A DNA stretch of 55,909 bases, the filler included, from Stramenopiles sp. TOSAG23-3 (Eukaryota), in assembly GCA_900128585.1 (NCBI GenBank). It is 4 parts of 4 records of this genome, joined end to end, with 100 filler letters (N's around TTAATTAATTAA, not from the genome) between each part and the next. Parts side by side here need not be neighbours in the genome. Positions count along the whole stretch, not along the records: positions 1 to 25,769 come from LT642284.1; 3 more parts are not named here. One strand, written 5' to 3'. Both the position numbers and the translations under genes were made by a program. Under the pieces are notes generated by a model. It searched no databases, was not told where the DNA came from, and saw only the letters and a list, made by a program, of their open reading frames with translations. Positions 10,424 to 46,796 of the stretch are shown here, one piece after another; the first letter of the stretch is position 1; every line of letters starts with the position of its first letter.

Positions 10424-12754
10424 ATGCGGAGTTGGAAGGAATGGGTTCCGCCTTGGGAAAAGAAGAAGTTGAGGCGGAAACGTGCTCAGGCAAAGGCAAG
10501 GGCGAAGTATGCGGCCTCGGGTGACCAAAACAGTGCAGCAAAGCAACGTTGTAGTGGTTTGAAGCGGGAGCATCCGGCCAGAAACGTTTCTGGAGGAAAG
10601 AAAAATAGAGTTCCGTTCAAAGACGTAGACCGTCCGAACCAAAAGCAACATGTGGTCAGCGTGGGTACTTTGGGAGGGGAGTTTTCAACGAACATGTTCC
10701 CTCCGCTGCCGAGGGCCCAAACGGCTTCGCCCCCTCCCCCGTTGCGATTACAGACCAGGCAAGCCCCATTTTTGAAACGTTCCTCTGCGAAACATGTTGT
10801 GCAGCGAAAGTCACAGTTGGACGACACGCTCATATCCTCCAAAGACCTTGCACGAGAGGACGAGGATTATGGGTACAACGAAAAAACGGGAAGTTATTAC
10901 ACGAAAACGAGACCGTACGAAAATATTTACAACAAACAAAATCAATATACAATACAGAGTGGGAGATATGGGCGGGCCGAATCTTTGTCTAGGAACCACA
11001 CCACCCGATTTTTTGAGAGTTCGCGAACGGTCCAAACGCCCGCGGCGGCAAAAGAAGCTGGGGTCTACAAAGCAAAGAAGAAGATGCGCATACGGCAGTA
11101 TAACGTTCCCCATTCGCCGGTCCACCACCGTCAATTGAACGGCAGTGTAGACCCATTAGGACGCGCCTCGTTCCAATCAAAGACGTTAAACGAGTATGCG
11201 GACAAAGCTCTAAAACTACCGGTATCAGAAGAGACCAGGGAGCAGTTCGACTCCCAGCTTGAGCAGTACAAGGTCGGTTTGGCCGAAAGAGCGGTGCTGG
11301 GAGACCGTGCGCGGAGCGACTACTACCGGCTCTACGCCCAAGGGAAGACGATGGCACAGCTGGAAACCAAGGCGAGGACGCTGAGGAAAATGTTCCTCTA
11401 CGAACGCTTCTTTGCGTACTGGAAACGAAAACATTACCGTTGCAAAAAAGCCATCAAGGTGCACCAGCGTGCTCATTGGCACCGGGTCGCCCGGGTGATT
11501 CTGAACTGGAAGGGTTTCGCAAAGGAGTGCGCAACGGCGAAACTGAAAGTAGCTCTCTTTGGCCAATCCTGTTTCCAACGAATAAAAGTGGTCCGGGAAA
11601 CCCGTATGGCGAAACGAATACAAAAGTGGTGGCAGGTCACCTGTGCGTTGCGGAGACTGGTACTAAGGGAGGACCATGGCAAAAAGATGGATGCCTTCAT
11701 GCAAAATGCCGCAGAGAAGATGCACAGTTTGCGCGTGTGTTTTGTCCAACTGGCAACGTTCTGGTACTCGAGAAAGATGTGGCGGAAGAAATTCCAAGAT
11801 CGCCGCTTAATGTTTGCGAAGCGATATTTTCAGGCGTTCAAGGTGTCCATGCGGACAGAAATTTCAAAGAGAAACCACTTAAAGTTTCATTACCGGCACA
11901 GCCATGGTGCATTTGTGGTGGAATTGAGACGGGCGTACACCGTGAGGCGGCGCCGTGTCCGCGGGAAAAAAATGCTTACCGTACAGTGCGCAGCACGGTG
12001 CTGGTTTGCAAGAAGAGAATATGCCAAGAATAAGAAATGGCGCGCTATGCTCAGGGACCTAATGCAGCGAAGCGCGGGGCGAATTCTGGCCGAAAATTGG
12101 GCTTCAGCGCAGTACTACTTTGACGGCTGGACGCAGTATGTGTTGAGGTCCAAACGAATAAAGTCGTTTCAGAAGCAGTTGCTTTTTGATCGCATGAGGC
12201 AGTCAATGGGGGGGGTGTTTACAGCCTGGAAGCAATTGCATGCCGTCTTGCAGGCAGAGAAACTTGTTGCCGTGCGAAAAATACAGCGGTTCATTAGGCG
12301 GTACCAGGCTTCAAAATTGCGAGAAATGATTATGCTAGCGACGAAATTCAACAAGAAAGCCGAGGCGGATGGCCAACGTTTATTGGATGAGGAAGCGGCA
12401 CGAAACAGGTCGAAGGCCCCAACAAAGCAAAGGTTTCGGTTGCCAACATCGCAGCTCTATAGCCCATTCCTGGCAAAACTGACGGACGCTTTGCAAGACG
12501 TTAAGGAATGCGAAGAACCATACTTCGACACTGCAATTTTGTCAACAGGTCAGCAGTATCCCCAACGCTTCGTTATGAAGACGCAGCGTAACTATTTAGT
12601 GGACATGATAGAAAGGCACATCAAAGAGGAGAAATTGCGGCTTCGAAAGCGGCGAAGAAGATCCTCGACGATGTGGCAAACCCGACTGAAAGAAGTAAGT
12701 GAAGGACGGCCGACCCCAATGGGGGTCGGCCCTTTGGAAAGGGGGCATTGGTAG
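10424..12754 (+). CDS. Basic helical protein with IQ motifs and Sfi1-like (F..WK) repeats; probable calmodulin/centrin binder
   Basis: FFAYWKRK, ILNWKGF, IQKWWQ, VQCAARCWFARR, YFDGWTQY, VFTAWKQL, IQRFIRRY. First ATG at 10424. Confidence 0.7.
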   Translation: MRSWKEWVPPWEKKKLRRKRAQAKARAKYAASGDQNSAAKQRCSGLKREHPARNVSGGKKNRVPFKDVDRPNQKQHVVSVGTLGGEFSTNMFPPLPRAQTASPPPPLRLQTRQAPFLKRSSAKHVVQRKSQLDDTLISSKDLAREDEDYGYNEKTGSYYTKTRPYENIYNKQNQYTIQSGRYGRAESLSRNHTTRFFESSRTVQTPAAAKEAGVYKAKKKMRIRQYNVPHSPVHHRQLNGSVDPLGRASFQSKTLNEYADKALKLPVSEETREQFDSQLEQYKVGLAERAVLGDRARSDYYRLYAQGKTMAQLETKARTLRKMFLYERFFAYWKRKHYRCKKAIKVHQRAHWHRVARVILNWKGFAKECATAKLKVALFGQSCFQRIKVVRETRMAKRIQKWWQVTCALRRLVLREDHGKKMDAFMQNAAEKMHSLRVCFVQLATFWYSRKMWRKKFQDRRLMFAKRYFQAFKVSMRTEISKRNHLKFHYRHSHGAFVVELRRAYTVRRRRVRGKKMLTVQCAARCWFARREYAKNKKWRAMLRDLMQRSAGRILAENWASAQYYFDGWTQYVLRSKRIKSFQKQLLFDRMRQSMGGVFTAWKQLHAVLQAEKLVAVRKIQRFIRRYQASKLREMIMLATKFNKKAEADGQRLLDEEAARNRSKAPTKQRFRLPTSQLYSPFLAKLTDALQDVKECEEPYFDTAILSTGQQYPQRFVMKTQRNYLVDMIERHIKEEKLRLRKRRRRSSTMWQTRLKEVSEGRPTPMGVGPLERGHW

Positions 12755-12982: not shown

Positions 12983-13897
12983 TTACCGTGTGGGCAAAAT
13001 GATGGAGTCTTCGTGATCCAATATTTTGCTAGATTCTTCGGCAATTGTTTGCACGATCGGTATTCTCATTTCTCGCATCCCGGTTATCTTTGCCCTATTT
13101 TGTTCCTGTCTAATTTTGCTGTGGAATTTAGATCGCTTTTTTAGCGGGGACTTCATCCCGCCCACGATTCCATTTTTATTCACAGCACTTGGTGGCATGC
13201 GGCGGTATTTTGGTTGGGTCCGACTGGGCTGTTCCAATTTTCCTAATTTGGAGCTTGGCCTGCCAGACAGGCTTGTTGCGTTCACGACGAACAGGTTTGG
13301 AGGCTTTGGTCTTTCTGTTGCAAGTTTCTTTCTATCTTTTGGCAGCGCTTTCATGTCGCGCGTTTGAACTCTATTTTTTCTTTTCGCGTTGCTGTCTGCC
13401 TTGTATTCCCGCACAAAAAAATTACAACTCCCTTCCGGGGGATCTTGTGACAGGATAGACCGTTTTTCAGCGGGCAACTTCTTGTATACTATCGAGTCTT
13501 CTGATGTTCCAATGATCTTGGGCCGTGATACAACTACTGGTGCAAACAGGGGGCGGTTGCTCACTACCACTAACTTTTTGTCCCGTGCAAAAATGCTCCT
13601 GCGGTGGCCCTCGCTGCTCTTCTTCTTGGCGTTCAGCCTTTTTATAATATTCTTGGACTCTTTCAATTCACCTTCAAAGTAGTTTGCATTTTCAAACGTT
13701 TCGATCGCTTCGCTGTACTGCCCTGATTGATGCTGTGCATAACCCCTCAGTCGCATTTCCTTCACCCGCTTGCTTTGTACCCCTGCTACTAAATCCGACA
13801 ACTGCGTGTTGTCATCTGCCAGAACGCCTACCGCCCGGAGCCATTCTGACCCCGTTGGGACCGGTTCTGACGAGTCCTCGTCCCTATCGTTCTCCAT
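12983..13897 (-). CDS. Hypothetical protein, possible single TPR-like helix pair, basic disordered C-terminus
   Basis: 304-aa ATG ORF in a GC-richer block; RGYAQHQSGQYSEAIETFENA is TPR-like. Confidence 0.65.
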   Translation of the reverse strand: MENDRDEDSSEPVPTGSEWLRAVGVLADDNTQLSDLVAGVQSKRVKEMRLRGYAQHQSGQYSEAIETFENANYFEGELKESKNIIKRLNAKKKSSEGHRRSIFARDKKLVVVSNRPLFAPVVVSRPKIIGTSEDSIVYKKLPAEKRSILSQDPPEGSCNFFVREYKADSNAKRKNRVQTRDMKALPKDRKKLATERPKPPNLFVVNATSLSGRPSSKLGKLEQPSRTQPKYRRMPPSAVNKNGIVGGMKSPLKKRSKFHSKIRQEQNRAKITGMREMRIPIVQTIAEESSKILDHEDSIILPTR

Positions 13898-23499: not shown

Positions 23500-25518
23500 A
23501 TGGCAGATATAAGAAAGAAAGAAATGCCTACGATGGCAGAACTGAAAAAGAAAGACATACGGTGGACGGTCAACCCTCTCGAGGTGGAGAGCGATGCCAC
23601 CCAGGAAAACCGTCCGTCGACAGGACCAAGAACATCTGCCATACAACGTGCCTCGAAGATCAGAGGTATTGTGAAAAATCAAAAATGGATCAGCACTGTC
23701 GGTGTGAAAGGGTTCTGCCTTATCCTTTTTATGGCGCTAATATCGGGATTTCACTGCTATATAATTTATGCGTACCGTCATAGAATGGACGGTTCCCTGT
23801 GGCCGTTTTTTTTGTTCGCGGTTGTGTTTGCCCTTCTTATTTTCCCTTATAGTATCTGTTGGAGAAAGAGGCTAGTGTCGTGGGCATCGCAGAAATATGG
23901 AAACAAAAGAAAACGGGGAATGAAGGCGAAGGGGTTCTCAATGCTCACATTTGCTACGTGGTATTCCGATAATCTAGCTCTGGATGGAAAGTACTTTTTG
24001 GTCCGTATGTATTTTAACGAGTTCGTCGAGACGATTTACCAATTTGTGAATTTCCAAGGGATTTACGTCTGTACGTTACCCATAGGAGTAACTTCAGGGC
24101 TGTGCATCTTGTTGCTATTGGACTCTTTGTACAGGATGTGGACCTTTCGGGCCGTTTGGTTTTCAGAAAACCACCATATATCTGTGGATGCTAGAAATGT
24201 ACAAGTGCACGTTGACATGTTCGTCGACGGGTGCTCCCTCGTTGTCCCCCCGGCCGTCATGTGGCTTGCGTATAACATGTATATAACCAGGGGAGAAATG
24301 GCGTCGATTGTCTTCATGCCAAGTGCATTTTTATTCGTCAAGATCAGACGGATGTACGACGAGTCATTGCGGCGTTACACAGAAAGGCAGATTATGGAAG
24401 CGCAGAGCAGGAATTCGTTAAGCTTGTCTAGACGGAGGGAGAGTGTGTACGGTGTCATCAACTCTGCTAAAATAGCAAAGGAACAAAATGAGGTGCTCAG
24501 CACTCCATTGCGAAAATCGATTTTTGTAGTGAGCGGTATCAGTGCGGTCTTCCTTGCCGTGATGCTCGCATCGCAGTTGCTGAATTATAGCGAAAACAAC
24601 GCCAGATGCACGGAACAGCTTGGCTCCCACTTCTGGGAGAAGGGGTGCAAAGTAAAGGTGCCCTACTGCAAAAGTCTGTTCACGCCCACCTGCGATTGTG
24701 CTGTGATCGATACGCAGGGGTATAACCGAACAACGCTTCCGGGGAAGTTCACTGGTTTGAACGCCATGCGAAAACTTACGATACAAAACAGTGCTCTGAC
24801 AACGATGCCAATGGATATGGGTGCAGAGTTCAAAAAAGTGAATCTTATTGTACTGAAAAACTGTAGATTGTCAGCATTTGACGTTGACGTTTCTATGTGC
24901 GAAGAGTTGATTACACTTTATTTGGACTTTAACTCATTGTTGTTTGTTCATAAAAGCGTGTGGAATCATACAGTTTTGATGAATTTCGATATCAGCGATA
25001 ATCCGGGACTAACTATTCCCAAACAAAAAATCCTGCTTCCAAAACTTTCGTATTTTGCAATGGTAAACAATAGCATGGAAATAATGCCCACGCTATTCGA
25101 AAACCTAGATGGCACGCCGTCGTTTCCAAGTATACAATATTTGTACCTAAGCAGGAACAAAATGGTCACTGCTCCCAGCACGATGAAAAATATTGCGCCG
25201 ACATTACAAAGAATATGGATGGCTGGTGTTGGCTTGGTCAGCCTCCCAGATTATATGTCCTCTTTTGAAAGAATCCAATTTATTGATGTGAGAAACAATA
25301 ACATAACAATTGTGGATGACAGGTTCATGAAGATGTTGCCACTCACTGCCATATCTTACTTTGCCGACAACCCAGTGTGTAGCACATCGCTGAGGGATAA
25401 ATTAGATTGTGTGCCTCTGTGTTCAAAATATTGCTTTGCCAGATATCATGACAATGGTTTTTGTGATAGCTCTTGCAATTCTTTCAAGTGTGATTATGAT
25501 GGTGGAGATTGCGTTTAG
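23500..25518 (+). CDS. Multi-pass (~7 TM) membrane protein with C-terminal Cys cap, leucine-rich repeats and LNR (Lin12/Notch)-like module
   Basis: Hydrophobic helices over aa ~65-360; LxxLxLxxN repeats (LITLYLDFNSL, IQYLYLSRNKM, IQFIDVRNNNI); NPVC cap; terminal CSKYC...DNGFCDSSCNSFKCDYDGGDC. Confidence 0.88.
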   Translation: MADIRKKEMPTMAELKKKDIRWTVNPLEVESDATQENRPSTGPRTSAIQRASKIRGIVKNQKWISTVGVKGFCLILFMALISGFHCYIIYAYRHRMDGSLWPFFLFAVVFALLIFPYSICWRKRLVSWASQKYGNKRKRGMKAKGFSMLTFATWYSDNLALDGKYFLVRMYFNEFVETIYQFVNFQGIYVCTLPIGVTSGLCILLLLDSLYRMWTFRAVWFSENHHISVDARNVQVHVDMFVDGCSLVVPPAVMWLAYNMYITRGEMASIVFMPSAFLFVKIRRMYDESLRRYTERQIMEAQSRNSLSLSRRRESVYGVINSAKIAKEQNEVLSTPLRKSIFVVSGISAVFLAVMLASQLLNYSENNARCTEQLGSHFWEKGCKVKVPYCKSLFTPTCDCAVIDTQGYNRTTLPGKFTGLNAMRKLTIQNSALTTMPMDMGAEFKKVNLIVLKNCRLSAFDVDVSMCEELITLYLDFNSLLFVHKSVWNHTVLMNFDISDNPGLTIPKQKILLPKLSYFAMVNNSMEIMPTLFENLDGTPSFPSIQYLYLSRNKMVTAPSTMKNIAPTLQRIWMAGVGLVSLPDYMSSFERIQFIDVRNNNITIVDDRFMKMLPLTAISYFADNPVCSTSLRDKLDCVPLCSKYCFARYHDNGFCDSSCNSFKCDYDGGDCV

Positions 25519-25769: not shown

Positions 25770-25869
25770 NNNNNNNNNNNNNNNNNNNNNNNNNNNNNNN
25801 NNNNNNNNNNNNNTTAATTAATTAANNNNNNNNNNNNNNNNNNNNNNNNNNNNNNNNNNNNNNNNNNNN
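25770..25869. other. Assembly gap / contig joint with artificial linker TTAATTAATTAA
   Basis: 100-nt N block with a central six-frame stop linker; the same structure occurs at 51606-51705 and 53758-53857. Confidence 0.95.
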
Positions 25870-27443
25870 GAAGCATCGTAATCTCCGCTGAGAATAATTT
25901 TTCTGCACTTCGTTTGGCATAGAAACTGCATAATGTTTCCGACAAGCTCGTGCGGCAAATTGTAAACATTTGATAACGCACGTTTGTGGTTTAGAACGCA
26001 CAAAAAGGCAATAACGGTGCGTTTTCCGACAGCGACGTAATCGATAGGGACTAGTTCCAGCAGCCGCTGCTGGTCGCATTCGTCCAGGCTGTAAAAGCTC
26101 TGTTTTTCTATTGTCAACACTTCTAAATTTCCATTGCGCAAGCCGTCCAAGGGGTTTATCTTTAACGCATCCAGCAGAATTTCTACGTCGAGCTTGTGCA
26201 ATCGGACATTCTCTAGGTTTAATTTCTGCAAGCGGTTGAATGTGAACCTCTTCCAGGTATTTTCAGGGGTCAACAAAGAAACTTCCGAGGGCACCATGCC
26301 ACTGCCAACGCTAGCAGCGACTCGTCTCGGTTTTAACGTTTCCGCTAAACGCTTCATCCAATTGTTTCCCACTCCATCCTGACAAACGCTCTCCTCCCCT
26401 TTCAATTGCAGTTCTTTTGTAAATGATCCGCTCGTGTTTCTAGTGGAAAGTCCGGAGAGTAAGGCATCCAGAGCAATGCAGGACATATCGTTGCCTCCGC
26501 ATGAAAGCCACTGTATTGCATGCATCTCACTCCACAGGCTGTGGGTCAAAGCGACCATACCGTCGTCGCCGATTTTGTTGTCGGCGATGTTTAGTTTATG
26601 CACTGGGCTCTGGGAGTGCTGGCGGCGATTCAAGGCGTTCGCCAGTGCAAAACCCCCTTCCATGCTAACACAACAGCCGGACACATCCAAAGCAACCAAA
26701 CTCTCCAGAGACAGTAAGACGGACTCGGAGAGAATAGCTGCGCCAGTACTGCCGAGGTTGTTTTTTGCCAAAGACAAAGACTTCAAACTGCAAGGGCCAC
26801 GAACGATAGCCTCGCAAAACTCCTCGAAAATTTGCAGTCCGTCGAATTGGGAGCATGATATTCTGTTGTCTGATAAATTCAATACCTCCAAGGTCCGATT
26901 GTGCAAAAACATGTCCGTTGCTTCCCTCATACCGAAGCTCCACCCGAACTGACACGCTTGGCAATTCTCCACGTTGAGCTCCCGCAAACACGTATTTTGA
27001 GCTATGTTTGTCATCCACGCGGCTGTCCCGGTGGGCCCGATTCCTTGATTACCTTGCAAGTTTAGCTGGCGTACGCTACACGAATTTCCATTTGCAAATC
27101 CGTTTTCTCCAAAGCATGATGCGAGTTTTCGTGAACCGGGGACCAAGAAACGATTGAAGGACAGATCGACTTGCTTCAGAGCCTTACAATGTTTAAGAAG
27201 CTGGCAGATGTAAGGTACTTCCCTATCTGACATCAGACTATCTTTCAGAGTGACGGACTGAAAACCAAAGTAACGCTTTGAGCGCACATGCCTCACAAAC
27301 TTTTTCAACTCTATGTTACAACTCTGGGTGTTTCGATTTTTAAACTTGGACAACTCCAGCAGAAAGTCTTGCCCACCCGCCCCTTCTCTCTTCAACCCGC
27401 TACTTTCTCCCCCCGTCTCGACTTCGCGATCGCTGTATGGCAT
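25870..27443 (-). CDS. RNI-like (ribonuclease-inhibitor class) LRR protein; 3' end lost in the gap
   Basis: LKQVDLSFNRF, LEVLNLSDNRI, LKSLSLAKNNLG..GA..L, LNIADNKIGDDG..AL repeats; F-box-like LPHELVGNIMQFL near the C-terminus. Confidence 0.88.
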
Positions 27444-37368: not shown

Positions 37369-38172
37369 TTATTCTTCTTTTTCCGTCGCACTGATTTCCG
37401 ACAGAGCATTCAGTTTGAACAAGGTTTCATCCAGTTGCCTAGTGTAATCGTCCAACCCGTCCAAGAGTTTGTTGCATCCGTCGACTCCGTTTTTCCCAGC
37501 TTCTTTCTCCACTTCGTCTTCGTTGATTCCGGATTTGCACTGTGCGGTGATGCTGTTTGCAAACATGTTCACTCGCAATTGCCGCACCGAGGCTTCTACT
37601 TTAGCCAAATCCTGTGAGCTTTGACTGTCCTCCGAAGTCAATTCGTTAAGCTGATCAGCAGAAAGCCCGTACTTTGCCATGTTGCGCCGTACGCATGCTC
37701 GTGCGAACGCTTCGTCGTCGCACTTTGACGACTCGTCGTTTTTCTGCTCGTACAGCTGTTTCTTCCGCTTTTCCTGCAACTCGCCCAGCTCTTTCCTCAA
37801 CTTTCTCTCCATTGCATCGGCAATTGGGTCGTAATTTTCGCCGGGTAAATCTACTATATATTGTGCCCTTCCTAGAATGTCATCCCTGCTGACGTCGGCT
37901 TCCTGGTTGCCGCCCGTTACGAACAGGGTCGACGGTGTCTCGTACGAGACTTGTTGGGGAGACGCTAGCCTTGCGGAAGCGTCATTTTGTTCTTCCTCCA
38001 GAAGTTGCCTCTTCAGCTTCATCATTTCGTTCTGACGTTTTTCCTGCCAATCTTTGATTCCAGATATGGCGGCATCCATACTGTCTAACGTTTCAGCATT
38101 TGAGATGTCAAGGGCAGCCTGCTCCGCCCCGGCTGCTCCAATCTCACGAGCTCCTCTCAAACCGTTGCTCAT
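37369..38172 (-). CDS. Hypothetical coiled-coil protein
   Basis: 267-aa ATG ORF with coding-like composition and heptad segments. Confidence 0.75.
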   Translation of the reverse strand: MSNGLRGAREIGAAGAEQAALDISNAETLDSMDAAISGIKDWQEKRQNEMMKLKRQLLEEEQNDASARLASPQQVSYETPSTLFVTGGNQEADVSRDDILGRAQYIVDLPGENYDPIADAMERKLRKELGELQEKRKKQLYEQKNDESSKCDDEAFARACVRRNMAKYGLSADQLNELTSEDSQSSQDLAKVEASVRQLRVNMFANSITAQCKSGINEDEVEKEAGKNGVDGCNKLLDGLDDYTRQLDETLFKLNALSEISATEKEE

Positions 38173-39277: not shown

Positions 39278-42200
39278 ATGTCAGCGGACGAGTTTTTGGA
39301 GCTCCAGGCGACTTTAGACGCTTTGACGAAGGAACAAGAGAACATGGAGGCCGGGGTGATCAGGCTTCACAAAAAACAGATGGCGATACACGAGTCAAAT
39401 GTCTCGGACAAAGCTACCCTGAAGAACAATTTTCTTAAAGAGACGGCCCGGATGGACAGAAAACATATGCCTGGTCCCGGCGATTATAGCTACAACACGC
39501 CCTTCGGTGCAGAAGCAAAAGGCGGTCGAATGAACCCTTTGCCAAAATCGAAACGTGCTGCACGCTCGACAAAGAGTGGAGAGCATGGCGCTAGGAACGA
39601 TCGACCGGGCGAGACCGACCCCTGCAGCTTAGAACGCGGGTATAGGGCGACTAGAAAAGGTGCGGTGGGGGGGTCAACTTTTGGAAAGACTTCCGGGGCG
39701 AAAAACAGGGAAGCTACAAGCTTTGGTTTCTCTGGCGATAGAAAAGAATTCGAGGAGGCGATTTCGTGGTTTTTTGGAACAAGCAACAGGTCGGAGATCA
39801 ACAAAGTGCTGCTCGTGTCAAAGCATGACGCTGTGTTAGATCTCAGAGACAACGGCTCTATATTCGCTGGAAAGGAAAGGGGGATTGCCAGGGCACCGCC
39901 GTCGTCGGTATTTTCAGTAGCATTTTACGGAACGCACGTCGCAATCAAAGCAACCAGAGGTCGCCATTTAGAATGTAAATCGAACAGGGTCGAATGCCAA
40001 AGGCTCGGTGCGAATGCCCATGGTAGTGAGTTTAAGTTAGAAAAGGTAGAGACTACAGAAAGAGCAGTCGACGAAACGGGAGAATCCAACCAGAAGCAGA
40101 ATAAGCAAAAAAAGAGAGCCCAAAGGCGTTTTTGCCGTTTAAAGAGTGAGCATGGCCTTTGCTTGACGTTGAAGGAAGACGGCATGCTTGTGTGTGAGCC
40201 TAAATTCGACGAAACAGATGAGTTTTTTGAAGGGAAAAGCACGCAGTTATTTTTTGCAGAACCGTATATTTTGGATGGAAACAGTTATAACCCAAAAGAT
40301 GATATTATTAGACCAAAGATTGTGAAAGGGAACGTTGGTTTTGGGAGGAGCCTCACCCCGAAACAAACCCCAGGTGTCGAGAATAAGGAGAACGCGCGCA
40401 CCCCAGATTCCAAAGGTGCCAGACCTACGATAGGAAATATCGACAAGGCCTTTGACCATGTCGAGCAGACTGCACCTGCTGCTAAATTCGGAACGTCGTC
40501 TCGGTTTGGAGGAAAGAAAGATCTAGGTAGAAAACTGAAAGGAGAGAAATTGTTGGCTTGGTTGAAGCAAGGAAGGGAGTGTAATGTATATCTGAAGTCT
40601 CCGTGCGGCAAATTTTTGCGGCCAAACCAGGTAGGCAGTGTGGGGTTTTCTACCAAGGCTATGCAAGAGTGCGTAGTCTCGTTCTGCCACATCCACAAGA
40701 ACGAGTTTGCGCTGCGTAATGTGCACCGGGACTATCTCGTGCACTCCGAAGCAGACAAAGAAATACAAGTACGGAGAGATAAAAATACGAATGACAATGA
40801 AATGAGTTTTGTGGTACACGTCAGTGGGTCCCGAATAGGGCTGCAGGCGTGCAATGGCAAATACATTAGTCTCAAAAGTGACGGTGGCGGTGCGCTCGGG
40901 ATGTGCGACAAAATGTCATCGCCGAATTGCTTGTTTCTACCTGCGCCATATGCGCCACATTACCAAGTTCGAGACAGCGCGATTCGGCCCAAAACTCAGA
41001 CCATGAAGTGGCGAACGCCTGTAAAAGCCAAACCGTCACCCGGTGGCGCCAGTACCCCGGACGGTGTGTCGGCCCCGAGCGTTGGGGCCCCAACGCCTGG
41101 AAATGCTGGAGATGGGATTGAGCCCATGGATACGGAGCCCACCCCTACCATGCAGTTTACTCCCACAAGCACGCCAACGCCAAATGACAAATTGATCCGA
41201 CCCAGAGTCCAAGGAGGTGCTTGGGCGCCCCCAACGTCCGAAAACGAAATGTCGAGCGCAATCAAGAAGCGAAAGCGAGAAAATATCGTCCCAGGCCCAG
41301 GATTTTACCAATCGGCCACTACAAAGCGATCTGCTGGCGCAGTTATCGCCCCACCCACAATTAAGCGCACTCAAAAAGAGGAAGCTGCCTTGCGCCAACA
41401 CCGACGAAGGGCTCAAAAGGAGATGTCCTCTGCCGGGCCTGGCATGTACGATTTGGCTGGCGGAATGCAGGCAATCAAACAGAACAGTAGCAAAGGCTTT
41501 TCCTTTTCGAAATTGTCTCGTGGCATTACGTCTCCGGGAAGGCGGAAGCGCAAAAAGGCGAAAGACGATGCGGAATCACGGGGAGAAAGTAAGTTTTCCG
41601 AAGACTATTTGCGAAATGAAGAAATTATTGAAGACGATGAAGAATGGGGGGATGGTGATATCTCGGCCTTGATGGCGGAGCCCGACCTCAACCTATCGTA
41701 CGTGAAACCACGAGTGCAGGGTGGGACTTGGGGCCACAAATCGAAGAAAGTGAACTGGAAAAACTATTACGCCATGAAGAAGGCCAGATTAGAAAAGGAG
41801 CGGTTGAAGCAAATCGGGCATTACGATGTGAAGCACGACGGGGTTGAGAAGAAAGTCAGTGGTATTCCATTGTTAGAAAAGGAAGCCAAGGCTCGCCAAC
41901 GAACTAAAACAATAACCAAAAAAGCCGTCGAGAACCGTAAAATGCATGAGGCGTACGAACGTGCCATGGCAGATACAGAACCAGGTGAGTTTCTGACTTC
42001 ACAGATGCACGATGACTGGGCAGAAACAGCTGCAAAGAAGCCAGTATTTCGGTACCACGAGGAAGCTCCGTTGCCGTCCCCAGCTGTGCGAGCACGAAAA
42101 GAGCGGGAACTTGAGGCAGCCGGGCCAAGCTCTTTCCTGGGCCCCCAAAATCTTTCGGACTGGACCAAGCCCAAGGATTGGGATGAGAGGATGAAGGCAG

Positions 42201-44329
42201 CGGAACCAAGTCGCATTTCCATGTCCATACAGAGTGGTCGTGACAAAGTCAAAGTCAAAACAAGGGAAGGGGCGAAGCCGAAGAAGAAAGTCGAAAAATT
42301 CACAAGCAGCTTAAAGTATGGAGTAGAGTCTCTCGGACCAGGACATTATGATAATGTTGACGTCCAAAGTGATAGACTTAAGGCAGAAAAATCAGGGCAC
42401 ACAAAGTCTTATGTTTCGTTCGGAAAGCGTGTGGGCCGTAAAGAGCAAGGCGGTGTTTTCGGTGAGCGTCCAGAAGTTGCTCTTGAAGCGGAAGCTGAAT
42501 TTTATACCCCATGGGTAGGCGGGGACGGGGCCCTTGAACTAGATGAAGAGAAGAAGTTGCGGCGACCAAACCAAAAGGAAGTGAAATCTCTTCCATGGAG
42601 TATGCTTCCAACGTCGCAGAGCAGGGTAAAAAATATCGATGGAGTTGATCTTGACGATGGGGAGCCGAAGTTGATCCTGGAGCCAAATGTGGACTGGGGT
42701 AAAAAGGGAAGAGACGTAAGCAAGAAGACAACGGCTTCGAATTACGAGCCTTTCTCGAAACAACAAGGGCGTGGTTTGACTCCAGAAGCGAAGAGAGGAG
42801 GAGATGATGAGTACGACTTTTCTGCTTACGAAGCAACGGAGGGTGATATTGTTGATATCAACCCAAGGCTGACGCCGTTGGAAAAACGAACAAAGAATGT
42901 AAAAATATCGTCTCGCCCAAGATGGGCCTCAGAGCACGCTGACTTGCTCCAGGGCGACAATGACGAGCCACAATTGATTCTTTCGCCAAAGGAAACGACG
43001 CAGAGGCAACGCAAAGACCGACATGTTCTAGACTTGTCGAAGCAAAAGCCTAGGTGGGAGTCCGATATCCCCGACAGCGATCTCAACGATTTCGCACCTT
43101 CGAACGATGCTTTGCATGCTCTCTATGACGTGGAACGAGGTCACGAGGCGTTGGCCAGCGAGATGTCAAAGGGGGGAGTGTCTTGGGACAAGAGAAAGCC
43201 TCGATTTACCCCCAAACCACCCAGGAATGACGATGACTTTTCGGGAGATTCGCCGAAGTTAATGCTTTCTCCAAAAGAGCATTTCAAATCCACTATGAAA
43301 CGAACCATATCCGGTGTGTCTATGTCGAAAGGGAAACCAAGGTTTACCCCAAAACCTTCACGAGATACCGAGATATATGGGCCTGAAGACGGTGAAGGGT
43401 TGATTTTAAAAGACGCCCTTGAACGGGAGGCGTTTCTGAAGAAGCGTGTAAAGGGAGTTGGCAGTATGCGAAAAACAAAGCCTCGGTGGCACGACGAAGA
43501 TAGCAATGCGAACGACGATCAGACTGCTTTGATATTAGAGCCGAAACGGACGGCCATAGAAAAGAAACCCGCCCCAACGGCATCCATGTCTCGACAGCGC
43601 GGTAGGGATTCTCCCCTCGAGAAAAACAAAGTCGATACATCGCACTTGGTTTATTCGCCAAAGCACGACTTTGGGCGAAGGGGAAATGCAGAAATAGCCA
43701 GCTCTTCGAAAGAGAAGCACAAAGAGCCATGGACAAAGCGGAAGCAATTTGGTGGGCTCGCTGCGGTCGACAACATCGTCAGGGAGGTTGAAGAGTTGAT
43801 CATCAGTCCAACAACAGCAGGGGAGAAGGTTCGAAAGAAACAAGCATCTGTCCGAAGCATGGCAAAGCAAGGTCCCAGCCGCAGTAAGATTGACCTCAAC
43901 GGCAATAAAATATACCCGAAAAAGGACAAACCAGAGCCCACATTGAGCATGACCGAGACCATGTATGATCGAAATGGCAAGAAGATTGAAGCAAAACGAA
44001 AGCCGTTCAAAGATCCGAAGGACGCGCTAAAGAGGCAGGTTAAGGGTGGTGGAATTGCACCCCTTCCCAAGACAAAGCGAAGGGAGCTTCCCCCGAAAGT
44101 CCCAAAAAAGAAGCGGATAGATGCTGGGGGGCGCTTGAAAAAAATGAAAACTATTACTGGTTTGGTAGTGAACAAGAAAAAAAAGGCTAAAAAGAAAGAC
44201 CTGAGTAAAACCATCATTGGGGTAAAGAAGAAAACGAAATCAGAGATTATTCGAGAACAACTGTTGTCCGTTCCAACAGATGATGGGGATGACGATTGGT
44301 TCCTGACGCCAAAACAAAGCTTGGTATGA
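39278..44329 (+). CDS. Large PGPGxY (SHIPPO/ODF3/STPG-type) repeat protein with two fascin-like beta-trefoil inserts
   Basis: MPGPGDY, VPGPGFY, AGPGMY, LGPGHY; internal KPRF/W...D...LILSPK repeats; VAIKATRGRHL, VYLKSPCGKFL, FALRNVHRDYL and IGLQACNGKYIS are fascin-like strands. ATG at 39278. Confidence 0.8.
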   Translation: MSADEFLELQATLDALTKEQENMEAGVIRLHKKQMAIHESNVSDKATLKNNFLKETARMDRKHMPGPGDYSYNTPFGAEAKGGRMNPLPKSKRAARSTKSGEHGARNDRPGETDPCSLERGYRATRKGAVGGSTFGKTSGAKNREATSFGFSGDRKEFEEAISWFFGTSNRSEINKVLLVSKHDAVLDLRDNGSIFAGKERGIARAPPSSVFSVAFYGTHVAIKATRGRHLECKSNRVECQRLGANAHGSEFKLEKVETTERAVDETGESNQKQNKQKKRAQRRFCRLKSEHGLCLTLKEDGMLVCEPKFDETDEFFEGKSTQLFFAEPYILDGNSYNPKDDIIRPKIVKGNVGFGRSLTPKQTPGVENKENARTPDSKGARPTIGNIDKAFDHVEQTAPAAKFGTSSRFGGKKDLGRKLKGEKLLAWLKQGRECNVYLKSPCGKFLRPNQVGSVGFSTKAMQECVVSFCHIHKNEFALRNVHRDYLVHSEADKEIQVRRDKNTNDNEMSFVVHVSGSRIGLQACNGKYISLKSDGGGALGMCDKMSSPNCLFLPAPYAPHYQVRDSAIRPKTQTMKWRTPVKAKPSPGGASTPDGVSAPSVGAPTPGNAGDGIEPMDTEPTPTMQFTPTSTPTPNDKLIRPRVQGGAWAPPTSENEMSSAIKKRKRENIVPGPGFYQSATTKRSAGAVIAPPTIKRTQKEEAALRQHRRRAQKEMSSAGPGMYDLAGGMQAIKQNSSKGFSFSKLSRGITSPGRRKRKKAKDDAESRGESKFSEDYLRNEEIIEDDEEWGDGDISALMAEPDLNLSYVKPRVQGGTWGHKSKKVNWKNYYAMKKARLEKERLKQIGHYDVKHDGVEKKVSGIPLLEKEAKARQRTKTITKKAVENRKMHEAYERAMADTEPGEFLTSQMHDDWAETAAKKPVFRYHEEAPLPSPAVRARKERELEAAGPSSFLGPQNLSDWTKPKDWDERMKAAEPSRISMSIQSGRDKVKVKTREGAKPKKKVEKFTSSLKYGVESLGPGHYDNVDVQSDRLKAEKSGHTKSYVSFGKRVGRKEQGGVFGERPEVALEAEAEFYTPWVGGDGALELDEEKKLRRPNQKEVKSLPWSMLPTSQSRVKNIDGVDLDDGEPKLILEPNVDWGKKGRDVSKKTTASNYEPFSKQQGRGLTPEAKRGGDDEYDFSAYEATEGDIVDINPRLTPLEKRTKNVKISSRPRWASEHADLLQGDNDEPQLILSPKETTQRQRKDRHVLDLSKQKPRWESDIPDSDLNDFAPSNDALHALYDVERGHEALASEMSKGGVSWDKRKPRFTPKPPRNDDDFSGDSPKLMLSPKEHFKSTMKRTISGVSMSKGKPRFTPKPSRDTEIYGPEDGEGLILKDALEREAFLKKRVKGVGSMRKTKPRWHDEDSNANDDQTALILEPKRTAIEKKPAPTASMSRQRGRDSPLEKNKVDTSHLVYSPKHDFGRRGNAEIASSSKEKHKEPWTKRKQFGGLAAVDNIVREVEELIISPTTAGEKVRKKQASVRSMAKQGPSRSKIDLNGNKIYPKKDKPEPTLSMTETMYDRNGKKIEAKRKPFKDPKDALKRQVKGGGIAPLPKTKRRELPPKVPKKKRIDAGGRLKKMKTITGLVVNKKKKAKKKDLSKTIIGVKKKTKSEIIREQLLSVPTDDGDDDWFLTPKQSLV

Positions 44330-45611: not shown

Positions 45612-46796
45612 ATGAGCCATATAATGTTCTCCAGAACGGTTCGTGGAAAACGTTCGAGCTTGATAAGGGCCAAGAGCACCGCCCGAAGATTCGTGCAAGA
45701 AAACGGATCTAGAAAAGATGTTGCTTTCGGCTTGAGGGCGTTGGCCCAAGCGAAGGTAGTCCAACTAATGTGGACGGGCATGAGCTTTTTCGATGGGAAA
45801 AACTATATTATAAGTAAACGGGACATCGATGCCCGAGGGGCTTCCCCGCTTGACACCTTCAAAGTATCAAAGCAAAGCCTGAAAAGCGGAACCCTGCTGG
45901 ACCATCCAAATTTTCCACTACACGTATATTTGCACGAGAAAACGAAAAAGAAGTGCTGCGTAGTGGTTCATAATTCCAATGCATCATGGCTTTCCGCGCA
46001 AAAATGGGTGAAAGGAAGTTTGCCAGCGTGGGACTGTAATTGTGCCATGTTTGCCAAAGAGGGGGAGGTCACGGAGGTAAACGTTCCCTACCAATTAGCC
46101 GCCCCGCTTGAATCTGTGCCTGGGAACGAAAGTCTCGGCCCGCACACAAAGGTAGGAATTCTACCGAACCGAGCGGTTGCAATTTTTGGGGACTCCATTG
46201 ATCAAACGGTTATGCGCAGTATTTACTTGAACTTTGCAATTGAGACGATGCGATCAATCGAGGTAAGTGGGCGTGAAAATGCGCGTTTGACTAGCCAAGA
46301 ACAGTTGAGAGAACAAAACAACGTATGGGATACTAACCCGACTTTCACGGAAGCAACGGAAATGAAAATATTGAAAAAGTCAATGAATCTTCCGTTATGG
46401 TGGGATAGGGTCGAACTCTCTGATTATTCAGATAGTAATTCGGACGAGCTGCAGCTGCTTGCTGCGGTGGACATGCCGGCAAACACCAAAATTGCAATCG
46501 TCGGTGGGAATATTGTGTGCGAGCCTACCATGCACACTGTGCGTTTGGCACCGAAAGTTCACTTGGAAATGACGGATGGCGGTGGGTCTGAAGAATCAAT
46601 ATTTACCCGGCTCAATCACTCTTTTACACCTAATTTGAGAGCAACGCCAAAACCGGAGCAGGAGTGCGTAGTTTTTAAAACTTTGCGCATGATCAAGGCG
46701 GGCGAGCCTCTTAATTTTGACTACACCAGTACGGAGGACAGCAACCTTGCGGCACCATTTATCGATGGCGAAACGGGGGAGTGGGTCGGGAAATGA
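45612..46796 (+). CDS. Fusion of a degenerate class II aldolase/adducin-like domain and a C-terminal SET domain; possible mitochondrial presequence
   Basis: N-half: FPLHVYLH...CVVVHNS.A..LSA and ILPNRAVAIFG.SID...MR.IYL. C-half: LLAAVDMPANT.I, RLNHSFTPN, TLRMIKAGEPLNFDY. N-terminus is Arg/Ser-rich and acid-free. Confidence 0.75.
   Translation: MSHIMFSRTVRGKRSSLIRAKSTARRFVQENGSRKDVAFGLRALAQAKVVQLMWTGMSFFDGKNYIISKRDIDARGASPLDTFKVSKQSLKSGTLLDHPNFPLHVYLHEKTKKKCCVVVHNSNASWLSAQKWVKGSLPAWDCNCAMFAKEGEVTEVNVPYQLAAPLESVPGNESLGPHTKVGILPNRAVAIFGDSIDQTVMRSIYLNFAIETMRSIEVSGRENARLTSQEQLREQNNVWDTNPTFTEATEMKILKKSMNLPLWWDRVELSDYSDSNSDELQLLAAVDMPANTKIAIVGGNIVCEPTMHTVRLAPKVHLEMTDGGGSEESIFTRLNHSFTPNLRATPKPEQECVVFKTLRMIKAGEPLNFDYTSTEDSNLAAPFIDGETGEWVGK

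Follow-up and report, generated by a model that had tools for sequence, protein, structure and literature searches.

A predicted seven-helix membrane bundle followed by an LRR-LNR ectodomain: a candidate surface sensor of an oomycete-centred family

A single open reading frame (ORF) in the window, that is, the whole 55,909-nucleotide stretch of Stramenopiles sp. TOSAG23-3 DNA that was analysed, encodes a 672-aa protein in which a membrane region is followed by a Cys-capped leucine-rich repeat (LRR) solenoid and by one terminal LNR (Notch-type) module. The predicted arrangement, with seven helices, the N-terminus inside and the LRR-LNR part outside, can be proposed with high confidence. Sequence comparison places the gene in a large, uncharacterised, oomycete-centred family of multi-pass surface proteins, and this LRR-LNR seven-helix family is likely to represent a new sort of environmental sensor.

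The way oomycetes sense their hosts and surroundings is largely open, and the group includes major crop and fish pathogens. Candidate oomycete sensors named in the available text of two papers are G-protein-coupled receptors, GPCR-bigrams, and LRR receptor kinases (PMC12223298, PMC6033456). The 672-aa gene points to a further sizeable and apparently undescribed family, with a ligand-binding ectodomain carried on a seven-helix bundle; a literature search found no paper describing such a multi-pass-LRR-LNR family. The structural models are confident enough for direct experimental design. Should the bundle prove to be ion-conducting, recognition of the LRR type and ion flux would be joined in a single chain. 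If it is a remote 7TMIC (the superfamily of insect odorant/gustatory receptors, GRL, DUF3537, and PHTF), a protein with a large extracellular part would be added to that superfamily, and if neither holds, there would still be a new membrane-protein family and a candidate oomycete-centred surface target. The features of the gene, as predicted from the family alignment and the models, are the following.

23500..25518, plus strand: whole single-exon ORF, 672 aa plus stop, with an ATG start and without internal stop
23500..23685, plus strand: predicted cytosolic N-terminus, residues 1-62, in which a basic amphipathic helix (47-59) follows a disordered stretch (AlphaFold2 model, charge counts)
23686..23772, plus strand: TM1, residues 63-91 (helix in both models; hydropathy peak 2.13)
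23791..23856, plus strand: TM2, residues 98-119 (helix in both models; hydropathy peak 2.33)
23857..23994, plus strand: basic intracellular loop 1, residues 120-165, which contains three short helices and the near-invariant G163 (charge count, model)
23995..24075, plus strand: TM3, residues 166-192, amphipathic, with the conserved polar stripe R169/E174/E177/Q181/N184 and the invariant C191 (family alignment)
24082..24162, plus strand: TM4, residues 195-221, with the conserved acidic position D208 (model, family alignment)
24184..24270, plus strand: TM5, residues 229-257, with R232, D239, D243, and P250 on one helical face (family alignment)
24289..24423, plus strand: TM6 and its long cytosolic extension as one helix, residues 264-308, with E266, P274, and K281 conserved (both models, family alignment)
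24430..24444, plus strand: RRRES motif, residues 311-315, in intracellular loop 3 (family alignment)
24451..24495, plus strand: polar cytosolic helix, residues 318-332, directly before TM7, with Q329 (full-length model)
24502..24579, plus strand: TM7, residues 335-360, the same helix extending outside the membrane to residue 374 (full-length model)
24580..24759, plus strand: juxtamembrane helix and the cysteine cap at the N-terminal end of the LRRs, residues 361-420 (family alignment, model)
24760..25404, plus strand: nine leucine-rich repeats, residues 421-635, with NPVC (624-627) at the end (Pfam LRR_8 and LRR_4; model)
25405..25515, plus strand: C-terminal LNR (Notch-type) module, residues 636-672, six cysteines, DxxCN...DGGDC (Pfam PF00066)

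The membrane bundle, the ectodomain and their orientation

The hydropathy scan found no signal-peptide-like hydrophobic stretch in residues 1-62, which are polar and basic (6 K+R and no D+E in residues 40-62), and so bore out the absence of a signal peptide reported in the earlier note. In the full-length AlphaFold2 model (pLDDT 90.3, pTM 0.86), residues 1-3 and 17-38 have a pLDDT below 50; the first hydrophobic segment begins at about residue 63-71. The start methionine occupies the column of M9 in 92% of the 63 aligned members, and the true start may therefore lie at nt 23524.

The earlier note had counted about seven hydrophobic helices. Both the full-length model and a membrane-only one (pLDDT 91.6, pTM 0.88), which used different alignments and agree in their helix boundaries, contain seven membrane-length helices, at residues 63-91, 98-119, 166-192, 195-221, 229-257, 264-308, and 335-374. 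On the Kyte-Doolittle scale (19-residue window), segments at 71-89, 103-121, 188-213, 238-258, and 340-358 all score at least 1.4, the last of them containing the TM7 peak of 2.25, and a weaker segment at 262-280 scores 1.3. Across the family, mean hydropathy is only 0.57 in helix 3 and 0.81 in helix 5; with two helices so weakly hydrophobic, the count of seven rests on the models and the charge rule, and not on hydropathy alone. A homodimer prediction with two copies of the TM domain, run without a supplied alignment in a program in which the fold itself was uncertain, scored 0.00 and speaks neither for nor against a dimer.

The bundle carries conserved polar residues on several helices. The motifs NEFVE (173-177), LLDSL (206-210), and VDMFVDG (238-244), to which the earlier note had drawn attention, are present, and their acidic residues (E174, E177, D208, D239, and D243) are conserved family-wide. 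TM3, in which mean column entropy is lower than in any other helix of the bundle (2.10), has E174, E177, Q181, and N184 on one face, confined to an arc of 80 degrees, and a conserved P194 lies in the TM3-TM4 turn, just past the TM3 span. In TM4, 92% of members have a charged or polar residue at position 208, and R232, D239, D243, and P250 in TM5 are 83-98% conserved within a 40-degree arc. TM7 is not especially conserved (mean entropy 2.82). On the proposed cytosolic side, loop 1 holds 11 K+R versus 2 D+E (family mean K+R 9.7) and is modelled with short helices at 121-133, 136-140, and 148-158. R313 and S315 of the RRRES motif are conserved in 86% and 83% of the 63 members, respectively, and the R-R-x-S pattern suggests a basophilic-kinase-type site. 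Q329 is identical in 98% of members, and a helix break at 333-334 separates its polar helix from TM7.

Behind TM7, the ectodomain is built from recognisable modules, and the Pfam searches together with the AlphaFold2 models agree with the layout first proposed (multi-pass region, Cys cap, LRRs, and terminal LNR). The cap cysteines C370, C383, C390, C398, and C400 are 94-100% conserved, and the first beta strands of the full-length model lie at 383-386 and 400-406, followed by regular LRR strands every 23-29 residues. LRR proteins are defined by tandem repeats of the LxxLxLxxN type; here the assignment follows from a Pfam LRR_8 match (E 3.6e-7; score 30.3 bits, cut-off 27), and PDB LRR proteins match this part in a sequence search at E 1.3e-16 to 1e-13. 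The LNR assignment follows from a PF00066 (Notch) match at 641-671 (E 2.8e-7, 31.3 bits against a gathering cut-off of 21.2), with weaker matches in the PDB sequence search to the GlcNAc-1-phosphotransferase alpha/beta chain and Notch1 (E 0.0026 to 0.046). The Notch and LRR families are the only Pfam families matched with support in the 672-aa protein. The LNR cysteines C641, C645, C655, C659, C664, and C671 are 92-98% conserved, N660, D667, and G669 are the commonest residues in their alignment columns, and acidic or Asn residues occupy the LNR positions of the predicted calcium site.

The distribution of charges and of disulfide-type cysteines supports an orientation in which the N-terminus would be cytosolic and the LRR-LNR part would face the cell exterior or a lumen of equivalent topology, in line with the N-in/C-out topology suggested by the earlier note. 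Over loops 1-3, the proposed inside carries more K+R than the outside in 63/63 members (0.20 versus 0.07 per residue of loop); the outside loops measure 6, 2, and 6 residues, and the inside loops 46, 7, and about 49. The loop before the last helix (287-334), already described as basic, has 9 K+R. Per 100 aa, there are 4.4 cysteines behind helix 7 and 2.0 before it, and 13 cysteines conserved in at least 92% of members are located behind this helix. The sequon argument stood in part: all five sequons of the 672-aa protein (N362, about two residues from the membrane, N409, N489, N523, and N601) follow the last helix and none precedes it. Across the family, 238 sequons were observed after helix 7 versus 216 expected from composition, and 82 versus 105 before it; the family-wide clustering is thus mostly compositional, and sequons are weaker evidence for topology than had been supposed.

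Two rival explanations concern the layout itself. In the opposite topology, the LRR-LNR part would be cytosolic and would regulate a pore from the inside, as in the LRRC8 (SWELL1) volume-regulated anion channels, which likewise have a membrane domain first and LRRs after it in the same chain. In LRRC8 proteins, four TM helices of pannexin type are combined with LRRs in the cytosol. A reading with six segments is compatible with hydropathy taken by itself, and both termini would then share one side; LRRC8 chains are found among the full-length fold matches with alignments of 536-774 columns. These matches, however, have TM-scores of 0.15-0.21 and an rmsd of 33-38 A, and it is the LRR part alone that matches; the 672-aa protein differs by its seven helices and its extracellular-type LRRs with disulfide caps, and no Pannexin-like Pfam match was found (672-aa protein at E<=1; 63 members at E<=0.01). 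The conserved cysteines behind TM7, 13 in number and with the six of the LNR among them, are of extracellular type, and the charge rule sets the loop before the last helix inside in 63/63 members. Cytosolic LRRs, which the earlier note had held to be fatal to its proposal, are accordingly very improbable. An even fainter chance attaches to a gene-model artefact, in which adjacent genes for a membrane protein and a secreted LRR-LNR protein would have been read as one ORF. Many database relatives are indeed short, TM-only or LRR-only pieces. Nevertheless, there is no stop or frame change over the 2019 nt of the ORF, the last TM helix is modelled as one helix running into the ectodomain, and no separate signal peptide precedes the LRR part. 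An LRR Pfam match also lies behind the TM domain in 54/63 full-length relatives at 19-32% identity; this conserved fusion argues against two separate genes, another outcome that the earlier note had named as decisive against it.

Relatives and known systems

In an exhaustive search, the membrane domain alone retrieves 200 cluster representatives (50% identity clusters) at E<=1e-3, of which 94 at E<=1e-10, and the feature is therefore beyond chance. Two of the relatives are P0002, a 672-aa protein 98% identical, and P0003, a 673-aa protein 31% identical with the same layout. Among the 63 full-length members, 27 have an LNR Pfam match and 46 a six-cysteine LNR-like tail. An embedding search with the whole protein gave several family-like clusters of 51-196 members each, with Oomycota as the commonest recorded phylum, and oomycete relatives are automatically named 'LNR domain-containing' or 'hypothetical'. 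The expectation that similar TM-LRR proteins exist unannotated in stramenopiles was thus confirmed. The terminal branches (median 0.94, quick tree only) are those of a large and deeply diverged family. The same embedding search with the TM part alone gave no usable match. Word-indexed searches, which say little about family size (the exhaustive search gives the size), returned three matches, namely the 98% and 31% identical proteins and one unrelated LRR-ROCO-like protein; with an alignment as query they added generic LRR proteins only, and with the TM-only alignment against longer proteins they found none. A scan of bacterial and archaeal genomes with the single protein as query, a method suited to close relatives only, yielded 77 pattern stretches and no confirmed relatives.

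Searches with the bundle itself led to no known family. Pfam gave no 7tm family and no Pannexin_like match for the 63 members at E<=0.01, and no 7tm_1, 7tm_6, 7tm_7, or DUF3537 for 25 TM-only sequences at E<=10; the lenient matches of the latter (Phage_holin_3_6 in 3/25, DUF2207_C in 3/25, and LPG_synthase_TM in 2/25) were all below cut-offs, with no consistent family, and Anthrone_oxy was a sub-threshold match in the TM region (E 0.14). A PDB profile search of the TM domain gave two matches (E 2.4 and 4.8), neither a chemoreceptor, and the fold search of the TM-only model gave none at E<=1e-3 in PDB or BFVD. Its top matches (ABC exporters, cytochrome oxidase subunit 3, YetJ, KCNQ2, TRP channels, a GPCR, and Gr64a) have TM-scores of at most 0.21 and were treated as background. 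The insect gustatory receptor Gr64a, at rank 2 in the PDB fold search (E 0.38, TM-score 0.20), does no better than the best match in BFVD, an unrelated viral library (E 0.23), and GPCR chains appear at E of about 0.8-1 only. Comparison of helix blocks by hhalign revealed no internal repeat, the sole strong score coming from two overlapping blocks.

Several specific candidates were also set aside. Conserved histidines mark the PAQR family; such histidines are missing from the conserved set, and no PAQR or ceramidase-type 7TM chain is found among the 50 fold matches listed. The six-residue loop between helices 5 and 6 is too short for the pore loop of a six-TM cation channel, and the conserved Ser/His of a rhomboid-type protease is lacking. 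From these sequence and fold searches, the seven-helix bundle is assigned to no described family, with no Pfam model or solved relative found; a match of the bundle alone to a characterised family, which the earlier note had listed among the findings that would count against it, thus appeared in neither the Pfam, PDB profile, nor fold search.

An analogy in overall composition is offered by the LGR4/5-type LRR-GPCRs, which combine an LRR ectodomain and a seven-helix domain in one polypeptide; in the PDB sequence search, the LRR part matched LGR4/5 ectodomains, among others (E 1.5e-9 to 1e-5). In the 672-aa protein, however, order and topology are reversed, with the LRRs at 421-635 after the last helix and a predicted cytosolic N-terminus without signal peptide; neither the sequence nor the fold searches matched a GPCR significantly, and an LNR cap replaces the hinge region. 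The idea of an inverted LRR-GPCR is, therefore, misleading, as the bundle is without GPCR similarity.

The 7TMICs can be compared using the criteria in the available text of the Himmel/Moi/Benton preprint (10.1101/2023.08.30.555482). Shared with them, as described there, are the seven predicted helices in N-in/C-out orientation and outside loops that are shorter than the inside ones. The length of TM6, and the polar helix with its break just before the last membrane helix, may be likened to 7TMIC features as well; loop 1 is longish, recalling the PHTF-like class. Set against the 7TMIC anchor domain (long TM4-TM6), TM6 has 45 residues, and TM4 and TM5 are modestly extended at 27 and 29, with a 7-residue loop between them (model helix spans only). 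Set against the split TM7 (cytosolic 7a and membrane 7b), there is the polar helix 318-332, a two-residue break, and the helix 335-374, again as read from the helix spans. Pfam and the PDB profile search, in contrast, provide no sequence-profile link to 7TMICs, the fold match to Gr64a is at background level, and TM7 is not the conservation peak of the oomycete-family bundle. The portions of the 7TMIC papers that were available mention N-terminal WD40 fusions and no large extracellular C-terminal domain. As modelled, the bundle agrees with several qualitative 7TMIC criteria, without a significant match to 7TMICs in the PDB and BFVD fold searches.

Oomycetes have other proteins of composite layout. 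The GPCR-bigrams (GPCR-PIPK, GPCR-AC, and others) are described in the available text of PMC6033456 as proteins in which a seven-helix domain comes first and an accessory domain follows at the C-terminus, the accessory domains being catalytic and predicted intracellular and the 7TM part GPCR-like, whereas the 672-aa protein has a non-catalytic binding module predicted outside and a 7TM part that is not GPCR-like; the terms 'LRR' and 'leucine' are absent from that text. LRR receptor-like kinases of the Phytophthora sojae IRK1/IRK2 type are oomycete surface proteins that sense via LRR ectodomains, according to the part of PMC12223298 at hand; these are single-pass with a cytosolic kinase, in contrast to seven helices and no kinase here. 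As for the LNR, the six-cysteine pattern is shared with the Notch negative regulatory region, GlcNAc-1-phosphotransferase, and PAPP-A. Unlike Notch receptors, the 672-aa protein has one LNR and not three, no EGF, heterodimerisation, or ankyrin domain, and seven helices instead of a single pass; unlike in other LNR proteins, the module directly follows the last LRR, the usual place of a C-terminal cap.

Proposed mechanism and alternatives

The best explanation as a whole, held tentatively and at somewhat less than even confidence, is an oomycete-family surface sensor with the bundle as a channel-like transducer. Within it, a role as sensor is reasonably probable, and ion conduction by the bundle is the more doubtful part. 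The concave face of the LRRs would bind an extracellular ligand. In the full-length model, TM7 is a single helix that runs about 14 residues past the membrane into the LRR cap, so that a ligand-driven movement of the ectodomain would pass directly to TM7. This helix is predicted to pack on a bundle with interior polar stripes, formed by E174/E177/Q181/N184 (TM3), D208 (TM4), and R232/D239/D243 (TM5), and the most likely output would be a cation path opened or modulated through or between such bundles, with the long basic cytosolic loops, including the conserved RRxS site, serving for regulation. The single LNR would, in the simplest case, close the LRR solenoid at its C-terminal end as a cap stabilised by calcium, and not serve as a Notch-style autoinhibitory switch. 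Pore helices are usually conserved; the TM7 entropy of 2.82 was counted against a channel, as was the lack of any significant structural match of the bundle to one.

A bolder form of this reading would be a new receptor-channel class, with an ion-conducting N-in/C-out bundle and a pattern-recognition ectodomain of LRRs and a calcium-binding LNR cap fused to the last helix, either a remote 7TMIC offshoot or an independent invention, coupling an extracellular macromolecular ligand to ion flux in oomycetes. It is unlikely as it stands; if true, such a receptor-channel could be used by zoospores or hyphae to sense hosts, mates, or the state of the wall. The recognition of prey or pathogens, put forward in the earlier note, found no support, and the relatives are commonest in osmotrophic oomycetes.

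Other functions would be compatible with the same layout. In a non-conducting conformational receptor, which is a rather unlikely alternative, the bundle would relay a shape change to cytosolic partners (e.g., kinases or G-protein-like) via basic loops 1 and 3, and the polar core would be a switch or an ion-binding site. The long conserved basic loops, the RRxS site, and the near-invariant Q329 do resemble docking or regulatory surfaces, the monomeric seven-helix bundle models confidently alone, and the absence of strong conservation in TM7 fits as well. Nevertheless, the searches linked the bundle neither to GPCRs nor to another signalling 7TM family that is known, its topology is the inverse of that of GPCRs, and five conserved acidic positions in a membrane bundle would be unusual for a pure relay. 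With still lower probability, the protein could be an adhesin or surface scaffold, in which the LRR-LNR part would bind the organism's own wall, the matrix, or a host surface, and the bundle would be mainly an anchor or have an unrelated transport or enzymatic role. LRR and LNR are generic binding modules, the available text of PMC3681718 lists Notch-domain proteins among surface or secreted families of Saprolegnia, and large, deeply diverged families such as this one are frequent among adhesins. One helix would, however, be enough for anchoring, and the bundle, which alone retrieves the whole family and bears conserved charges, is its most family-specific part.

The comparison with the 98%-identical P0002 bears on the ligand-binding face assumed in the favoured sensor reading. 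Ten of the 13 differences between the two proteins fall in the ectodomain, and 6/10 of these occupy positions predicted for the concave face, of which there are 45 (hypergeometric test over the LRR region, p 0.007), with the repeat register set by hand and the last repeat shifted by one after inspection (5/10 on hand recount when unshifted). This divergence of the predicted concave face fits with a ligand-binding face that would diverge fastest.

Domain architecture and predicted topology

The architecture claimed in the earlier note was borne out: the finding is real, and the layout of the query protein is as described, with a membrane bundle first, then a Cys cap, LRRs, and a terminal LNR (Notch-type) module. 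Two AlphaFold2 models were computed from separate alignments, one for the full-length protein (63 sequences; pLDDT 90.3, pTM 0.86) and one for the membrane part only (130 sequences; pLDDT 91.6, pTM 0.88). The helix boundaries are the same in both.

Membrane segments and adjoining elements of the query protein in both models (residue numbers)
63-91: TM1
98-119: TM2
Between TM2 and TM3: intracellular loop 1, 46 residues, holding three short helices
166-192: TM3
195-221: TM4
229-257: TM5
264-308: TM6, a single helix, far longer than the membrane thickness
318-332: polar helix
333-334: helix break
335-374: TM7, hydrophobic over 340-358, with a further ~14 residues that reach into the LRR cap

By hydropathy alone, TM1, TM2, TM4, and TM7 are strong, TM5 and TM6 are weaker, and TM3 is amphipathic. 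As basic character is shared by the N-terminal flank and the loop that precedes TM7, the number of helices between them must be even, and TM3 must, therefore, cross the membrane. Throughout the full-length family alignment (A1), K+R residues are more numerous in loops 1-3, proposed to be cytosolic, than in the three short opposite loops (63/63 members), with densities per residue of 0.20 on the proposed inside and 0.07 outside. Past TM7, 13 cysteines are conserved at a level of at least 92%, a complete LNR among them. Both the charge rule and these cysteines uphold the N-in/C-out orientation that had been put forward, and the sole consistent reading is a predicted placement of the LRR-LNR part outside the cell or in a topologically equivalent lumen. 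Architecture and topology, taken jointly, are very probably as modeled.

Pfam assigns residues 641-671 to an LNR/Notch module (E 2.8e-7, 31.3 bits against a cut-off of 21.2) and also detects LRR_8 (E 3.6e-7, 30.3 bits against a cut-off of 27), and residues 1-365 have no above-noise match there. A sequence search of the PDB related the LRR part to Leptospira LRR proteins, SHOC2, and the LGR4/5 ectodomains (E 1e-16 to 1e-5), and the tail, weakly, to the LNRs of Notch1 and GlcNAc-1-phosphotransferase (E 0.0026 to 0.046); it returned no match for the membrane part. All the motifs quoted earlier were recovered, namely NEFVE (173-177), LLDSL (206-210), and VDMFVDG (238-244), together with the basic loop before the last helix (287-334, with 9 K+R), the Cys cap (C370, C383, C390, C398, and C400), NPVC (624-627), and the six-cysteine tail. 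The use of N-glycosylation sequons as a topology marker fared less well: all five do sit after the last helix, but the excess there over the 63 family members (238 observed vs. 216 expected after helix 7, 82 vs. 105 before it) is mostly compositional, so that sequons are weak evidence for topology.

Identity and possible function of the membrane bundle

Structure prediction and fold search of the bundle alone, as the earlier note had advised, gave no significant PDB fold (Foldseek, none at E<=1e-3, the best having E 0.24), and no relative was found among viral models (best E 0.23). The same holds for Pfam at E<=10, searched with 25 TM-only sequences, and for all PDB sequences, searched with a bundle profile (best E 2.4). 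No internal repeat was found in the bundle.

The insect gustatory receptor Gr64a ranked second in the PDB fold search (E 0.38, TM-score 0.20). Seven-transmembrane ion channels (7TMICs, insect OR/GR-like), for which qualitative criteria are listed by Himmel, Moi and Benton (10.1101/2023.08.30.555482), resemble the query in having seven helices in a predicted N-in/C-out arrangement, with outer loops that are short and inner loops that are long; the longish first inner loop is shared with their PHTF-like class. The long TM6 of the query, and its polar helix and break ahead of the last membrane helix, may correspond to two further features on that list. Against a relationship, the Gr64a score equals the viral-library background, no sequence profile links the two, and, in the query, TM4 and TM5 are only modestly extended and TM7 is not the conservation peak. 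The 7TMIC fusions mentioned in the excerpt of PMC9998090 are with N-terminal WD40.

TM3 is the most conserved helix (R169, E174, E177, Q181, N184, the invariant C191, and P194), with E174, E177, Q181, and N184 on one helical face, within an 80-degree arc. In TM5, R232, D239, D243, and P250 all lie within 40 degrees of arc; in TM4, position 208 is acidic, and TM6 carries E266, P274, and K281. Five conserved acidic positions inside the bundle suggest possible cation binding or passage. In the inner loop ahead of TM7, an RRxS motif (R313 conserved in 86% of members, S315 in 83%), with the nearly invariant Q329, would fit a regulated cytosolic surface.

The query differs from its 98%-identical relative at 13 positions, 10 of them in the ectodomain. 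The concave face of the LRRs is predicted to comprise 45 positions, and six of these 10 differences hit it (p 0.007 by a hypergeometric test confined to the LRR region), in a hand-set repeat register whose last repeat was shifted by one after inspection; an unscripted recount with the unshifted register gives five of 10. These 10 protein differences hint, if only slightly, that evolution may be fastest on the concave face, as expected of a ligand site.

We rate the query as a putative receptor with an LRR ectodomain, in which the order is inverted and the multi-pass transducer is unprecedented. A role as a surface sensor is somewhat probable. The LRR face would bind the ligand, the LNR would form a C-terminal cap stabilized by calcium, and the rigid TM7 extension would relay movement to the polar-cored bundle, which, most likely, would gate a cation path. 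Ion conduction by the bundle, to which the acidic positions point, is proposed tentatively. A conformational receptor working without conduction is rather unlikely, and an adhesion or scaffold role is improbable. The full-length model does align with LRRC8 channels over 536-774 columns, but with TM-scores of 0.15-0.21 and an rmsd of 33-38 Å, so that the correspondence is limited to the LRR part, and an LRRC8-like inverted topology is very improbable. A fused gene model is scarcely credible; the ORF at 23500..25518 (+) runs uninterrupted through 672 codons.

Family size, variants, and distribution

Residues 1-365 were scored against 1.84 billion cluster representatives, of which 200 scored at E<=1e-3; 94 of them also passed E<=1e-10, and 7 passed E<=1e-30. 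The best 150 of the 200 were retrieved. A1 consists of the query and 62 proteins of 560-770 aa, chosen from 154 (63 rows), which are 19-32% identical to the query. Left out were P0002 (the 98%-identical relative), P0004 (an unrelated LRR protein of 1095 aa), the longer P0076 and P0105, which likewise have LRRs, and all shorter pieces. LRR matches in Pfam occur in 54/63 rows and an LNR match in 27/63, and the membrane domain of the 63 rows is not covered by any Pfam family. The tail is six-cysteine and LNR-like in 46/63, a three-cysteine variant in 11/63, and of another kind in 6/63. A quick tree, the careful search being unfinished, has long branches (median terminal branch 0.94) and several well-supported subgroups; the three-cysteine variant makes up a single group of 12 rows. 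Judged from sequence, the family is conserved.

A protein-language-model search with the whole protein retrieved clusters automatically named 'LNR domain-containing protein' (657 aa, 54 members; 726 aa, 86 members) and several 'hypothetical protein' clusters with up to 196 members. These leads, which come without alignments, agree with the query architecture, and the guess that similar proteins were already in databases under automatic names proved right. All of these clusters are from Eukaryota, and, where members have a record, Oomycota is the phylum found most often; on the taxonomy of this lead alone, the family appears oomycete-centered.

Clusters from oomycetes that bear the name 'WLGC domain-containing protein' (PF26605; 760 aa, 51 members) have a sequence-feature score of 0.91 against the query. 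PF26605 has no match among the 63 A1 members, and 'WLGC' as a whole word retrieved no paper on a protein domain among the literature matches listed. Possibly, the WLGC clusters represent a sister family whose ectodomain differs.

No description of a multi-pass-LRR-LNR family was found in full-text literature searches; members could appear in supplementary tables. LNR domains are ancient and also occur outside animals (PMC2770060), Ectocarpus having 31 LNR proteins (PMC3874173). 'Notch protein' counts are 15 for Saprolegnia and 1 for every other oomycete listed (PMC3681718), and the zoospore membrane proteome of Phytophthora includes four uncharacterized LRR proteins (PMC12223298). In the excerpt of PMC6033456, none of the GPCR-bigrams has LRRs.

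The gene and its surroundings

The family start Met aligns with M9 of the query in 92% of the 63 aligned members (window 23500-23526), so nt 23524, and not 23500, may be where translation begins; M1 is also the annotated start in the 98%-identical relative. With the query protein, tblastn gave no other match in the window better than E 0.6, and the gene is thus single-copy there. The window around it is eukaryotic, gene-dense, and apparently intron-poor, with further long ORFs for ATG9, WD40, NIF phosphatase, and ankyrin proteins, an MFS transporter, an aldehyde dehydrogenase, and an Ion_trans channel.

Selected ORFs in the window
10424-12754, +: 776 aa, no Pfam match at E<=1e-5
12983-13897, -: 304 aa, no Pfam match at E<=1e-5
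25818-27443, -: LRR_6 ORF (RNI-type repeats), 541 aa, E 4.8e-20
37369-38172, -: 267 aa, no Pfam match at E<=1e-5
39278-44329, +: 1683 aa, sole Pfam match a weak Fascin domain (E 8.4e-9)
45612-46796, +: 394 aa, class II aldolase/adducin N-terminal domain (E 9.6e-9) and SET domain (E 2.1e-7), Pfam
51731-53515, +: Ion_trans ORF, 594 aa, E 2.7e-18, N-run pairs on either side

We know of no description of the class II aldolase/adducin and SET pairing. The LRR_6 ORF has no significant tblastn match with the query protein and is, for this reason, read as another kind of LRR protein, not related to the query family; its product is probably cytosolic, and no membrane segments were noted in it.

N runs of 44 bases occur in three pairs, with 12 bases between partners (25770-25813/25826-25869, 51606-51649/51662-51705, and 53758-53801/53814-53857), at the filler between the joined records. 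The first pair lies ~250 nt downstream of the query gene stop codon and cuts into the convergent LRR_6 ORF at its 3' end, hence the X run in the translation of that ORF. Such regular spacing suggests masking or scaffolding, not biology.
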